DNA of 32,000 nt from an uncultured Actinomycetes bacterium (GCA_963835295.1 CAWIEX010000012.1:646089-678088), one strand, 5' to 3'. Counted from the first letter of the stretch, positions 1 through 4,232 are shown. Notes: generated from the letters alone by a model not told the origin. A program made the numbers and translations.

Positions 1-642
1 GAGGTGCCAGGGGCTCGGCCGGACGAGGACCTCGGCGCCCGTCCGGCGGAGCTGCTCGACCGCGGTGGGCACCGCGTCCGGGCCGAGCAGGCCGCCCGCC
101 GCCGTGGTGCGGCGCTGGTGGGCGTTGAAGGCGGCCGCAATGCGGCCGTCCAGGGGATCGGCCGGGGTCAGGGCGAAGCGACCGACGACCGTGAGCGCGA
201 GCAGCACAGGACAGCCACTGGCCGTGCAGGCGCCGAGCATCGCGGCCAGCTCGTCGGCGGTCAGCATGTCGAGCAGCGCCGAGGCGACGACGAGGCTCGC
301 GTCGGCGAGCTCGCCGGGCGCCAGCCGGGTGATGTCGGACCGCCGCACCTCGAGGGTGACCGCGGCCCCGTCGGCGGCCGGTCCCGGGGGGTCCTCCATG
401 GCGAGCTCCAGCAGATCCGCGTCGCGGTCGTGCACCACCCAGTGCTGGCGCCCGGGCAGGCGCGGCGCGAGCCAGCGGCCCATCGCGCCGCTGCCGCCGC
501 CCAGGTCGTGGATCACGAGGCGCCCGCTAGCGGGGAGGTGGCGCCCGAGGCGCTGCACGAGCTCGACCGAGCGCGCCGCCGCGTCGGCCGGCTCGCGCAG
601 CGCGAGCCAGTGTGGGCTGGTGCGGACGGCCCGCGCGATCAT
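1..642 (-). CDS. Class I SAM-dependent methyltransferase; 3' end runs off the window
   Basis: Absent from the ORF track because it is open at the window edge. My minus-strand translation from ATG 642 reads [62 protein letters not shown]... and contains SAM motif I (hhDLGxGxG). The ATG overlaps the upstream glycosyltransferase stop (ATGA). Confidence 0.7.
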   Translation of the reverse strand, partial: MIARAVRTSPHWLALREPADAAARSVELVQRLGRHLPASGRLVIHDLGGGSGAMGRWLAPRLPGRQHWVVHDRDADLLELAMEDPPGPAADGAAVTLEVRRSDITRLAPGELADASLVVASALLDMLTADELAAMLGACTASGCPVLLALTVVGRFALTPADPLDGRIAAAFNAHQRRTTAAGGLLGPDAVPTAVEQLRRTGAEVLVRPSPWHL

Positions 643-1706
643 CGCGCTGCTCCCGCGAGGACGCCGGCGACCACGGACGTGGTGGCCGGCCACCCGCGCA
701 GCGACGCGCGCCGCTCCCGGGCGGCCCGGCGCAGGCGCCCACGCAGATCGGCGTCGCCGAGCCAGGTGCGCAGCGCAGCGCCGAGGGCCGCTGGGTCGCC
801 GGGCGCCACCAGCAGCCCCGGCCGAGTGCTGTCCGCTGCGCGCCCGAGGGCTTCGGTCACCCCGCCGACCTCGGCGGCGAGGACCGGCAGGCCGCGGGCC
901 AGGGCCTCGGTGACGACCATGCCGTACGTCTCGGCGCGCGAGGCGAGCACGAGCAGGTCCGCGCCGGCGTACGCGCGATCGAGCTCGGAGCCGATGCGCG
1001 CTCCCGCGAACCGCACCCGGTCGCCCAGGCCCTTCTCCCGGGTCGCGCGCTGCACGCCGTCGGCGAAGGCCGGGTCGCGGTCCAGGCTGCCCACGCATGC
1101 ACAGCGCCAGGACAGGTCCGTCGTCGTCGCCAGCGCGTCGAGCAGCACGTCGTGGCCCTTGTCGGGCGTCACGGCCGCCACGCAGAGCAGGGCGTCGCCG
1201 GCCGCGGTCCCCGGCGCCAGGCCGGCGGCGTCGACGCCGGGCTCGGCCACGTAGACGCGGTCGGCCGGCAGCGCGTAGAGCTCCCCGAGCCGGCCCCGAG
1301 CCCAGGCGCTGGTCGTGACCACGGCGGCCGCCGCCGCGAGGACCTCGCGCTCGCGCGCGCGCACCGCGCCGGCCTGGTCGTCGGGCGGGCGGTGGCCCAG
1401 CGGCATGTGCACGAGCACGACCTGCGCCAGGCGGCCCGCCTGCGGCACGAGCGCCTCGGGGGCGGCGGACGCGATCAGCCCGTCGAGCAGCACCACGGCG
1501 CCGTCCGGGATCCGCCGCACAGCGCGCGCGAGGGCGGCGTGTCCCGCCGCGCTCGCACGCGGCCAGGCGCCGGCGATCGGATGCTCGTGCACGGCCCAGC
1601 CCAGCGCGGCGAGCTCCCGGCAGACCCGGCGGTCGTAGGCGTTGCCGCCGCTCGGGTGCGCCGGGTCGTCGATGCCCTCGGGGACGACGAAGTGGACCTC
1701 CGTCAC
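639..1706 (-). CDS. GT-B fold glycosyltransferase (group 1 / GT4-like)
   Basis: These are the last 355 codons of track ORF 639..2672. GTG 1706 overlaps the PTPS-like stop (GTGA). The N-terminus is [11 protein letters not shown]. The C-terminal domain '[34 protein letters not shown]' matches the GT1 donor-binding motif. The upstream ~320 aa of the track ORF are Arg/Pro-rich shadow. Confidence 0.8.
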
Positions 1707-2101
1707 AGCGGCCGCTCGTAGCTCGCCCACGCGACGTGGGACTCGTGCAGCGTGACGACGAGCCCCTCGAGCTCCCGCGCGCCTTCGCCCAGGGCGCCGG
1801 CCCGCGCGCGCTCGGCGAGCCGGTCCGCGACGACCTGCGCGAGCGCCTCGGTCGTCGTGTTCATGCCCGCGAGGCCCGGCTCGTCGTCGAGGTTGCGGTA
1901 GCCGAGCTCGCCCACCACGGCGCGCAGCGCCTCGGCGGCGCGGCCGATGTCGACCACGATCCCGTCGGCGTCGAGGGCCGCGCGGCGGAAGGTGACGTCG
2001 ACCACGTACGTCGCGCCGTGCAGGCGCTGGGCGGGCCCGAACACCTCGCCGCGCAGGGTGTGGGCGATCATCATGTGGTCGCGGACGGTCACGCTGAACA
2101 C
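1703..2101 (-). CDS. 6-pyruvoyl-tetrahydropterin synthase/QueD-family T-fold protein, catalytically degenerate
   Basis: 132 aa with a GTG start. The family pattern is '...[27 protein letters not shown]...'. The family CxxxHGH motif reads AQRLHGA, so the Cys and one Zn-binding His are missing. Confidence 0.75.
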
Positions 2102-2104
2102 GCG

Positions 2105-3145
2105 CTAGCCACCGTCGTAGGTGATGGTGTGACAGAGCGCCGGGAGGCTTCCCGCGGCCAGGCGGGCCATGACGGCAGGCAGCTCCTCGAAGCGCGACTC
2201 GCCGGTGACGAGCACGTCGAAGGCCGGGTCGCGCAGCAGGTCGAGCGCGAGCGCCAGCCGGTCGGCCGACGTCCGGCGCGCGCTGCGGGCGGGGGACACC
2301 GTGCCGACCTGGCTGGCGCGGAGCCCCAGGCGGCCCGCGTGGAAGGCGCCGCCCAGCGAGAGGCGCACCTCGGCGTCGCCGTACCAGCTGAGGTCGAGCA
2401 CCGTGCCCTCGGGCGCGAGCAGGTCCAGCGAGCACTGCAGGCCGGCCGAGGTCGCGCTCGTGTGCACGACCAGGTCGCACCCGCCAGCGGCGTCGGCCGG
2501 CCGCGCGAAGCGGGCGCCGAGCGCCGCCGCGACCTCGGCCCGAGACGCGTCGATGTCCACGAGCGTGACGTCGAGCGCCGGGAACCGGGCCAGCAGGCGG
2601 GCGACGCAGCAGCCGACCATCCCGGCGCCGACGACGGCGACGCGGTCGCCGAGCAACGGGGGCGCATCCCACAGGGCGTTGACGGCGGTCTCGACGGTCC
2701 CGGCGAGCACGGCCCGCGCAGGGGGCACGTCGTCGGGCACGACGGACACCGCCTCCGCCGGCACGACATAGGCCGTCTGGTGCGGATAGAGGCAGAACAC
2801 CGTGCGCCCGCGCAGCTCCGCCGGCCCCTGCTCGACGGCGCCCACGTTGAGGTAGCCGTACTTGACCGGCCCCGGGAAGTCCCCCTCCTGGAACGGCGCG
2901 CGCATCGCGGCATACTGGCTCGCCGGCACGCCGCCCCGGAAGACCAGCGTCTCGGTCCCGCGGCTGACCCCGGAGCGCAGCGTGCGCACCATCACGTCAC
3001 CGCGCCCCGGCTCGGGCAGAGCGACGGGCCGGATCTCCCCGCGCCCCGGTGCGCGCAGCCAGAACGCGTTCGCGTCGTCGAGCACGTCCCTATGCCTCGG
3101 CTTGGTGCGCCATGAGCCTGTGATGCCCCGGGGGGCCTGGGCCAT
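2105..3145 (-). CDS. MDR-superfamily (zinc-ADH-like) dehydrogenase
   Basis: 'RSGVSRGTETLVFRG' is a BchC-like GxSxGTE motif in place of the usual GHE/Cys zinc ligands. The Rossmann motif is 'VAVVGAGMVGCCVARLL'. The start is ATG 3145; an alternative GTG 3085 is preceded by GAGG at a 9-nt spacing. The stop lies 3 nt before the PTPS-like start. Confidence 0.75.
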   Translation of the reverse strand: MAQAPRGITGSWRTKPRHRDVLDDANAFWLRAPGRGEIRPVALPEPGRGDVMVRTLRSGVSRGTETLVFRGGVPASQYAAMRAPFQEGDFPGPVKYGYLNVGAVEQGPAELRGRTVFCLYPHQTAYVVPAEAVSVVPDDVPPARAVLAGTVETAVNALWDAPPLLGDRVAVVGAGMVGCCVARLLARFPALDVTLVDIDASRAEVAAALGARFARPADAAGGCDLVVHTSATSAGLQCSLDLLAPEGTVLDLSWYGDAEVRLSLGGAFHAGRLGLRASQVGTVSPARSARRTSADRLALALDLLRDPAFDVLVTGESRFEELPAVMARLAAGSLPALCHTITYDGG

Positions 3146-3236
3146 CACCCACCCAGACGCCCTGCCGGCGGCCATCCTTCCCGGGCGTGCCGTTCGGTGG
3201 ACGCCGGCGGGCGGTCCACCGTACCCTCCGGAGTCG

Positions 3237-4232
3237 ATGAAGCGGACGCCTGTCTCGCGGTTCCCCGACGTGCAGGCGTCGGCACCGGCCATCCAGGTGT
3301 CGCTCTCGCGGGTGGGCGTGACGAACGTCGAGAAGGTCATCCGGATCGGCCCCGCTGGCGCCGAGCAGCTCTACTACGCCAAGCTCGACTGCTTCGTCGA
3401 TCTCGGCCCGGACCAGAAGGGCGCGCACATGTCGCGCTTCGAGGAGGTCGTCAACGACGTCATCGGCGAGGTGGTGCTGGGCGAGAGCGGCTTCAAGGCC
3501 GAGCAGCTGGCCCAGCACATGGCCGAGCAGGTGCGCGAGCGCCAGGACGCCCGGCGCGCCGAGGTGACGATCGCCGCTCGCTATCCCGAGCACAAGCCCG
3601 CGCCGGTGTCGGGGATCGCGACGCAGGAGATCTACACGCTGCACGGCGCGGCGGTCGCCTCCGAGCACGGGACGCGCCGCCTGGTGGGGGTCGCCGCGCA
3701 GGGGATGACCGCGTGCCCGTGCGCGCAGGGGCTCGTCGCCGGGCGCTCGCGCGAGCGCCTCGTGGCCGACGGCTTCAGCGACGACGAGATCGAGCGCATC
3801 CTCGAGGCCGTTCCGGTGGCCACGCACAACCAGCGCGGCCTGGGCACGCTGTACCTCGGGCTGCCCGAGGCCTGCGAGAGCGACGTGGACGCCGCGGAGC
3901 TCCTCGGGATCGTCGAGGACTCGATGTCGAGCGAGATCTACGAGCTCATGAAGCGCTCCGACGAGGGGGCCGTGGTCGAGAAGGCCCACCGGCGCCCGCG
4001 CTTCGTCGAGGACTGCGTGCGCGAGGCGATCCGCGGCGCGATCGAGCGCTTCGACAGCTTGGGCGACGACGCGTTCGTGTCCTCGCGCCAGGAGAACCTC
4101 GAGACCATCCACCAGCACAACGTCGTCGCCGAGCGCTTCGGGCTGCTGGGCGAGTTGCGCCGCGAGCTCGACGCGGGCCTCCACGTCGCGCATCACATGA
4201 CGATGCGCGAGTGGCTCGACGCCGCCGCCTGA
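3237..4232 (+). CDS. folE2: GTP cyclohydrolase, FolE2/MptA family (type IB/IV, COG1469)
   Basis: Taken from ATG 3237 within track ORF 2862..4232. GGAG lies just upstream. Family motifs are 'DQKGAHMSRFEE', 'AQGMTACPCAQ' and 'VPVATHNQRGLG'. I cannot distinguish FolE2 from MptA chemistry by eye. Confidence 0.8.
   Translation: MKRTPVSRFPDVQASAPAIQVSLSRVGVTNVEKVIRIGPAGAEQLYYAKLDCFVDLGPDQKGAHMSRFEEVVNDVIGEVVLGESGFKAEQLAQHMAEQVRERQDARRAEVTIAARYPEHKPAPVSGIATQEIYTLHGAAVASEHGTRRLVGVAAQGMTACPCAQGLVAGRSRERLVADGFSDDEIERILEAVPVATHNQRGLGTLYLGLPEACESDVDAAELLGIVEDSMSSEIYELMKRSDEGAVVEKAHRRPRFVEDCVREAIRGAIERFDSLGDDAFVSSRQENLETIHQHNVVAERFGLLGELRRELDAGLHVAHHMTMREWLDAAA

Follow-up and report, generated by a model that had tools for sequence, protein, structure and literature searches.

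A 32,000-nucleotide stretch of DNA from an uncultured Actinomycetes bacterium (GCA_963835295.1 CAWIEX010000012.1:646089-678088), hereafter the window, was analysed with regard to a cassette of four minus-strand genes at its left end, which encode a dehydrogenase, a homologue of 6-pyruvoyl-tetrahydropterin synthase (PTPS), a glycosyltransferase and a methyltransferase. The cassette stands divergent from a gene of the MptA/FolE2 family of GTP cyclohydrolases, and the original prediction had read it as tailoring a pterin, possibly on the methanopterin branch. We found that the four genes belong to a conserved module built around the PTPS-IV subfamily (SCO6650 type), and that this module is independent of methanopterin genes. 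The window has ~75% G+C, and genes were identified by GC3 frame analysis (G+C at third codon positions) and by listing of open reading frames. GC3 was 0.93-0.99 in all four cassette frames. The features at the left end were as follows.

1..642, minus strand: class I S-adenosylmethionine (SAM) methyltransferase, gene 4 of the operon, truncated here by the left end of the window; the complete gene (273 aa) lies at L002:13821-14642.
639..1706, minus strand: family 4 glycosyltransferase (GT4; GT-B, retaining type), 355 aa (Glycos_transf_1, 4e-26).
1703..2101, minus strand: PTPS-IV T-fold protein, SCO6650 orthologue, 132 aa (3d7j 1.5e-60; PF01242 8e-25).
2105..3085, minus strand: zinc-less dehydrogenase/reductase of the medium-chain (MDR) fold, BchC-like, probably 326 aa from GTG 3085 (346 aa from ATG 3145).
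3086..3185, minus strand: conserved operon leader with a 7-codon upstream open reading frame (uORF), common to the island-free relatives L028, L029, L019 and L031-L033.
3186..3236, no strand assigned: junction between the cassette and a one-carbon (C1) island, set by the limits of homology on both sides.
3237..4232, plus strand: MptA/FolE2-family GTP cyclohydrolase (TIGR00294, 290 bits), first gene of the tetrahydromethanopterin (H4MPT)/methanofuran island and a neighbour of the cassette only.

Gene junctions were read directly. The dehydrogenase stop (TAG 2107-2105, minus strand) is followed after 3 nt by the GTG start of the PTPS-like gene (2101), GTGA (1706-1703) combines the stop of the PTPS-like gene with the start of GT4, and ATGA (642-639) likewise holds both the GT4 stop and the methyltransferase start, exactly as had been described for four translationally coupled genes. 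The limit of four genes did not hold, as the operon runs on past the window edge and has seven. It was followed into the 14 kb left of the window (L002) and encodes, in order, the dehydrogenase, the PTPS-IV protein, GT4, the methyltransferase, a membrane protein with an LPG_synthase_TM domain (MprF-type, flippase-like), a RibD_C reductase and an acyltransferase_3 protein. According to the gene calls of a 97% identical relative (L027), overlaps of 4-8 nt occur throughout all seven genes. Beside the operon lie a phosphoesterase (PLC-like, Tat-exported) that bears a twin-arginine leader, a CDP-alcohol phosphatidyltransferase and a second methyltransferase. Two of the genes outside the window were located as follows.

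L002:12144-12842: RibD_C (PF01872) reductase, two genes downstream of the methyltransferase.
L002:7374-9713, plus strand: CDP-alcohol phosphatidyltransferase, 779 aa, with ~10 transmembrane-like segments and a CDP-OH_P_transf domain.

The RibD_C protein was matched best by TIGR01508, the archaeal-type 2,5-diamino-6-ribosylamino-pyrimidinone 5'-phosphate reductase (136.6 bits). The closest solved relatives of GT4 were MshA (3c4q, 7e-16), sucrose-phosphate synthase (6kih) and BshA (5d00), all of which glycosylate small polyol or hydroxy-acid phosphates; its scores stayed far under all equivalog cut-offs (for MshA, 71.7 vs 462 bits), and a PDB search gave no specific likeness to a known pteridine glycosyltransferase. 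The methyltransferase had a weak Methyltransf_25 match, and an atlas search returned only generic class I methyltransferases. Residues ~420-779 of the CDP-alcohol phosphatidyltransferase (~360 aa, probably soluble) had no match in Pfam, NCBIfam or PDB. The 16 kb adjoining the window on the outside contain no GTP cyclohydrolase II (GCH II) gene.

The dehydrogenase was the best-conserved gene of the module, with 70-92% identity over 45 species. It matched families of the Rossmann part only, where 'VVGAGMVG' forms a GxGxxG dinucleotide-binding motif, and its score against TIGR01202 (bchC) was 41.6 bits vs a cut-off of 291. In alignment with threonine dehydrogenase (2d8a), 'SGVSRGTE' stands at 'SICGTD', where the zinc Cys sits, and a domain profile search gave no ADH_N match. 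Together these bear out the claim that GxSxGTE replaces the zinc ligands. 'KYGYL', placed by eye, appears to occupy the GHE position.

The PTPS-like protein matched SCO6650 of Streptomyces coelicolor (PDB 3D7J) over its full length (residues 1-132, E 1.5e-60). It carries FGPAQ, and F21, G22, P23, A24 and Q25 were invariant in two homologue alignments. This motif has been published as the PTPS-IV signature, found in place of CxxxHGH (PMC5445326). By sequence, the protein is assigned to the PTPS-IV subfamily of COG0720 (SCO6650 type). Its residues were aligned to those of E. coli QueD and rat PTPS (4ntk, 3qna, 1b66). The PF01242 T-fold, H14 and H28 (the first two zinc His positions) and the substrate-anchoring pocket glutamates are shared with canonical PTPS/QueD proteins (PTPS-I, -II and -III), whereas 'PAQRLHGA' stands against 'K(C/A)GRLHGH' of QueD, with Ala24 at the catalytic Cys and Ala30 at the third zinc His, and the Asp-His dyad is replaced by Gly-Tyr. 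The predicted loss of the catalytic Cys and of one zinc His was thereby confirmed, and SCO6650 has lost the same two residues. Scores were under the curated cut-offs for QueD (TIGR03367, 45.1 vs 89.25 bits) and for PTPS (TIGR00039, 34.2 vs 125.5 bits). Judged by these residues, the PTPS chemistry is lost and '6-pyruvoyl-tetrahydropterin synthase' is the wrong name for the protein.

Among 26-46 homologues, FGPAQ, H9, H14, H28, D51, N70-L71-D72, E85, E120-S121 and E129 were (near-)invariant, and so many invariant polar residues suggest that PTPS-IV may be an enzyme. The invariant E85 and E120 are the predicted Glu residues that bind the 2-amino-4-oxopyrimidine in the T-fold pocket. A complex prediction of the dehydrogenase with three PTPS-IV copies, run with own alignments, gave a score of 0.00, which counts neither for nor against binding. 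Four other chains (P0138, P0164, P0175 and P0262) each have three tandem PTPS-IV-like domains, a possible covalent pseudo-trimer, and two of them also carry an extra ~450-aa region without a Pfam match. Fusions of PTPS-IV to GT4 (P0239, P0238) and of the dehydrogenase to PTPS (P0184), seen among cluster representatives, were considered as evidence of coupling and dropped as possible frameshift artefacts; the one fusion contig that was examined held many fragmented genes.

The neighbourhood of PTPS-IV genes was surveyed in a family sample and in a species scan. The family sample comprised 120 GTDB genomes of the same family (Solirubrobacteraceae, as suggested by match names), or 121 with the genome of the window. 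PTPS-IV was present in 12/120, and all 12 loci carry the dehydrogenase, PTPS-IV, GT4, the methyltransferase, the MprF-like protein, the RibD_C reductase, the CDP-alcohol transferase and the second methyltransferase. The outer flanks of these loci were mutually unrelated, and no MptA or H4MPT gene lay within 10 kb of any of them.

A search for PTPS-IV returned >8000 protein matches. For the species scan, a pattern made from 14 sequences was applied to one genome per species (GTDB), which gave at least 593 loci, and the best 80 of these were annotated within 10 kb by tblastn with the proteins of the window's genome. As tblastn can miss divergent methyltransferases, the lower counts are minimum values. 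The 80 loci span Solirubrobacterales, Micromonospora, Streptomyces, Amycolatopsis and others. The counts were as follows.

PTPS-IV: 80/80 loci
GT4: 79/80 loci
Dehydrogenase: 78/80 loci
MprF-like protein: 71/80 loci
RibD_C reductase: 66/80 loci
Methyltransferase: 64/80 loci
GCH II: 51/80 loci
CDP-alcohol transferase: 50/80 loci
Second methyltransferase: 24/80 loci
Acyltransferase_3: 11/80 loci
MptA/FolE2: 0/80 loci
FolE: 0/80 loci
Any H4MPT gene: 0/80 loci

MptA and H4MPT genes were therefore absent from all 80 + 12 other cassette loci, contrary to what a methanopterin role had led one to expect. Among the cluster GCH II proteins (n=52), 36 keep the catalytic Tyr ('KLDAYALQD') and 16 have Met or Leu instead ('KLRAMKLQ'); of the latter, Streptomyces with its relatives contributed 15 and Amycolatopsis one (L095). 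In the family sample, a housekeeping folE/fol operon was seen divergent from the module dehydrogenase in one genome (G048, L018 7023-8895), and housekeeping folE/fol genes ~3 kb past the second methyltransferase in another (G030, L017 19416-20000). This proximity is probably due to chance, since no FolE occurs in the 80-locus set.

Co-occurrence with H4MPT genes was assessed through Mch. Of the 121 family genomes, 13 carry the cassette, 14 carry Mch and four carry both (G000, G030, G073 and G075). Mch was missing from 9/13 cassette genomes and the cassette from 10/14 Mch genomes, including one of the same genus (G055), and in G030, G073 and G075 the two lie on separate contigs. The family tallies of Mch, and those of FolE2/MptA homologues and CofG given below, include an unpublished genome (G003), without which each count shifts by at most one. 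In a phylum sample (n=300), 17 genomes had the cassette, two had Mch and none had both, and Mch was absent from 5/5 named or complete cassette genomes. The expected co-occurrence was not borne out, with Mch missing in 9/13 family, 17/17 phylum and 5/5 named genomes.

The plus-strand gene facing the cassette scores 290 bits against TIGR00294 (cut-off 220), and the rest of the window is filled by a complete H4MPT/methanofuran C1 island. The island encodes DUF1464, MtdB-like and DHPS-like proteins, a pterin dehydratase, a short-chain dehydrogenase/reductase (SDR), Fae, a CitG-like protein, ATP-grasp ligases, FhcA/D/C, Mch, MfnB, a GHMP-kinase-fold protein (a candidate beta-RFAP synthase) and PabAB/PabC; the ~33-kb island also includes PQQ/XoxF-like genes. 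A FolE2/MptA homologue (64-89% identity) was found in 99/121 family genomes, Mch in 14 only, and some of the genes that are named after the MptA equivalog in this family may be ordinary FolE2-type enzymes. Island genomes have a second FolE2/MptA copy ~9-13 kb from Mch. This second copy stands tail-to-tail with DUF1464, with no cassette beside it, in G030, G054 and G055 (the last being of the same genus and cassette-free), and beyond MptA the genes of G055 are syntenic with another contig of the window's own genome. MptA travels with the H4MPT island and not with the cassette. A further FolE2/MptA-family copy, 88% identical to that of the window, was noted at G000:C10:126891-127855 (L005, L006); it is split over two frames near residue 50-58, as a frameshifted pseudogene or through an assembly error.

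Two relatives, L028 and L029 (PTPS-IV 93% identical), have the same ten-gene module variant and no island. Upstream of their dehydrogenase lie genes for a transaldolase, Usp, a mechanosensitive (MS) channel, SGL, ChrB_N and a P-type ATPase. The ChrB_N and P-type ATPase genes of the window's genome (93-94% identical) were found in the same orientation at G000:C12:682651-685824, ~4.6 kb to the right of the window. The PTPS-IV module and the chrB/ATPase pair are conserved flanks, and the ~33 kb between them is therefore the C1 island, which extends from window position ~3190 to ~36560 and replaces a 4.3-kb segment of L028/L029. Homology to L028/L029 on the cassette side stops near 3183, homology to G055 on the island side reaches only ~20-25 nt upstream of the MptA ATG, and the junction was placed at ~3186 to ~3215. 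On these alignments the adjacency of cassette and MptA is best read as a lineage-specific accident, the scar of an island insertion, and only the near-identical L027 shares the junction. The bracket of chrB/ATPase and PTPS-IV module also defines an insertion site for the C1 island.

With moderate confidence, we regard the four genes as the promoter-proximal part of a conserved PTPS-IV/SCO6650 module that uses riboflavin-type GTP chemistry. The tailoring of a pterin, as claimed, survives in part: a GTP-derived, glycosylated and methylated product is still the best guess, and the link to the methanopterin branch is given up. Because the conserved partners are GCH II and a RibD_C reductase, entry would be by a diaminopyrimidine and not by dihydroneopterin. 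We infer the following chemistry from gene content. GCH II would convert GTP to 2,5-diamino-6-ribosylamino-4(3H)-pyrimidinone 5'-phosphate; here, since the genome has RibBA alone, this housekeeping enzyme would supply the precursor. The RibD_C enzyme would then reduce the diaminopyrimidine to the ribityl form, which the dehydrogenase and the T-fold protein may remodel to a pterin-like compound, for instance through side-chain oxidation with ring closure or isomerisation. GT4 would place a sugar on a side-chain hydroxyl and the methyltransferases would methylate the compound. Finally, the CDP-alcohol transferase and the MprF-like protein may couple the product to a phospholipid and deliver it to the envelope. 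A more specific form of this proposal, which we put forward only tentatively, is that the module makes a novel membrane lipid with a glycosylated, methylated, GTP-derived head group (a ribitylaminopyrimidine or pterin-like ring), attached to a phospholipid by the CDP-alcohol phosphatidyltransferase and flipped to the outer face by the MprF-like protein, with the T-fold protein carrying out a new, metal-independent ring remodelling.

Several points weigh against the riboflavin-type reading. RibBA (contig C14) is the genome's sole PF00925 match, which makes the entry substrate an inferred one, and most Solirubrobacterales copies of the module also have no dedicated GCH II. The RibD_C score of 136.6 bits is below the curated cut-off of TIGR01508 (186). 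With the CDP-alcohol transferase at only 50/80 loci within 10 kb, the lipid step is perhaps not universal. As L027 shares the MptA junction, MptA and the cassette may be co-regulated in this single lineage. SCO6650 was reportedly crystallised without metal (2008 structure paper), which leaves the T-fold protein a putative catalyst. A literature search found no paper that names a product of a PTPS-IV cluster.

The alternative closest to this proposal keeps the soluble core (GCH II, RibD_C reductase, dehydrogenase, PTPS-IV, GT4 and methyltransferase) and has it make a free pterin or ribitylaminopyrimidine glycoside, like the cyanobacterial pteridine glycosides, with the membrane genes serving export or being unrelated. 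The near-invariance of the dehydrogenase, PTPS-IV and GT4 (78-80/80), set against 50/80 for the CDP-alcohol transferase and 24/80 for the second methyltransferase, speaks for it, as do GT4 relatives that act on soluble small molecules. We nevertheless consider it rather unlikely: the MprF-type gene is present in 71/80 loci and translationally coupled within the operon, the CDP-alcohol transferase is adjacent in 12/12 family relatives, and GT4 shows no specific likeness to pteridine glycosyltransferases. The opposite emphasis, on an envelope glycolipid or polysaccharide module without any nucleotide-derived moiety, would have the PTPS-like and RibD_C-like proteins recruited for unrelated substrates. 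GT4, acyltransferase_3, the MprF-like protein and the CDP-alcohol transferase are indeed typical envelope genes, and there is no dedicated cyclohydrolase here, but a GCH II paralogue at 51/80 loci, invariant T-fold pocket residues for a 2-amino-4-oxopyrimidine and a RibD_C protein that best matches pyrimidine reductases make such a module very improbable.

A role of PTPS-IV in F420 or riboflavin synthesis, for instance at a missing pyrimidine-processing step, follows a remark in PMC5041015 and fits the neighbouring GCH II and RibD_C genes, both early riboflavin/F420 enzymes. It sits badly with the distribution of the genes, as CofG was over its cut-off in 112/121 family genomes vs 13/121 for PTPS-IV, and four PTPS-IV genomes (84-91% complete) had no CofG match; the glycosyltransferase, methyltransferases and membrane genes, moreover, have no role in that synthesis. 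We judge this role improbable. The least probable reading, to which we give hardly any weight, is the tailoring of a methanopterin-branch pterin that the divergent MptA would supply and that the PTPS-like protein would bind as a subunit. The cassette does abut a complete H4MPT/methanofuran island divergent from MptA, here and in L027, the genome has no dedicated GCH II, and the four family genomes with both cassette and Mch exceed the ~1.5 expected, a weak excess because related genomes are not independent. All of this is outweighed by the 92 other cassette loci with neither MptA nor H4MPT genes inside 10 kb, by the many cassette genomes without Mch and Mch genomes without cassette (most in each case), by the placement of the two on different contigs in G030, G073 and G075, and by MptA being a gene of an island inserted between conserved flanks.

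The riboflavin-type module was compared with known systems. Its counterpart in S. coelicolor, which we take to be SCO6649-SCO6655 with SCO6655 as the GCH II paralogue, shares the features of SCO6650 described above (full-length match, FGPAQ, lost catalytic Cys and zinc His). Three Streptomyces loci (L080, L072 and L093) have the same order of dehydrogenase, PTPS-IV, GT4, methyltransferase, membrane protein and RibD_C reductase as the copy studied here, which differs from them in having no cluster GCH II and in its additional acyltransferase_3 and Tat-exported phosphoesterase. The Streptomyces GCH II proteins have Met or Leu in place of the catalytic Tyr, a residue retained in most other lineages. 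According to Spoonamore et al. 2006/2008, the Met variant SCO6655 reportedly forms formamidopyrimidine (FAPy), stopping at the formylated intermediate.

With the archaeal riboflavin/F420 route (GTP cyclohydrolase III/II, formamide hydrolase, TIGR01508) the module shares the best RibD_C model and a conserved GCH II, but it has no lumazine synthase, riboflavin synthase or FO synthase, and GT4, the methyltransferases and the lipid enzymes are foreign to that route. The CDP-OH_P_transf and LPG_synthase_TM domains resemble those of PgsA/MprF-type phospholipid head-group chemistry; unlike PgsA, the CDP-alcohol transferase of the module has an extra ~360-aa C-terminal part. Likeness to H4MPT biosynthesis is confined to adjacency in this genome and in L027, with neither co-occurrence nor conserved adjacency of the cassette. 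The cyanobacterial BGluT/PgtA pathway to pteridine glycosides uses a functional PTPS and a dedicated pteridine glycosyltransferase; here the PTPS-like protein has lost that chemistry, and GT4 has MshA, sucrose-phosphate synthase and BshA as its best solved relatives. In the synthesis of toxoflavin and fervenulin, which uses GCH II, a RibD-like protein and SAM methyltransferases, a GCH II/RibD intermediate is diverted to a methylated non-flavin, which sets a precedent. That pathway is not known to involve a T-fold protein, an MDR dehydrogenase, a glycosyltransferase or lipid genes.

The cluster type itself is already known: it has been described as an orphan with PF00925 and PF01872 among its neighbours, PF00925 being labelled FolE2 (PMC5445326). 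PF00925 is GTP cyclohydrolase II, so the 'FolE2' neighbour of that paper means GCH II. What sets the copy studied here apart is that an island was inserted beside it and that it has no dedicated cyclohydrolase, which suggests that the module can run on housekeeping RibBA alone. PTPS-IV clusters have been noticed since 2006-2017 and occur in at least 593 species. The same module with and without the ~33-kb C1 island amounts to a natural experiment, in which adjacency to pterin genes is seen to mislead. For annotators, 'MptA' calls in this family extend well past the genomes with H4MPT genes.

The dehydrogenase probably starts at GTG 3085 rather than at ATG 3145, because L027 has ATA at the position of ATG 3145, a 1-nt indel falls inside the counterpart of 3086-3145 in L028 and L029, and the gene calls in all three relatives begin at 'VLDD' (the GTG equivalent to 3085). 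The 91-bp gap to MptA given in the original prediction rests on ATG 3145 and becomes ~151 bp with the favoured start. The uORF (MAHQAEA) runs from ATG 3113 to TAG 3090 and ends 4 nt ahead of the probable dehydrogenase start. It sits in a leader of ~100 nt that is kept in Solirubrobacterales relatives (typically ATGCCGTACGAAGCCGAGGCATAG), and in L031 it has no stop and reads in frame into the dehydrogenase. A leader riboswitch was considered and rejected, as RNAalifold on eight Solirubrobacterales leaders yielded a single compensatory pair, and the covariation term was positive. Rfam had no match in the window or in seven loci, and a scan of 2900-3400 for promoters and terminators found none.

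Apparent long-range helices in Micromonospora-type loci were also rejected; in them, the Shine-Dalgarno region and the codons for the N-terminus of the divergent CDP-alcohol transferase paired with a repeat on the opposite side. The sequence 'AACACGGA...GTTCG(A/G)', in a strongly conserved inverted arrangement on both transcribed strands, lies in the ~130 nt between the divergent CDP-alcohol transferase and dehydrogenase genes. The inverted 'AACACGGA' arrangement, which had no Rfam match, was seen in L047, L051, L056, L088 and ~20 other loci, with one copy overlapping the ribosome-binding (Shine-Dalgarno) site and the earliest codons of the CDP-alcohol transferase. The 'AACACGGA' element could be a shared operator or a 5'-untranslated-region (5'-UTR) element of the PTPS-IV module.

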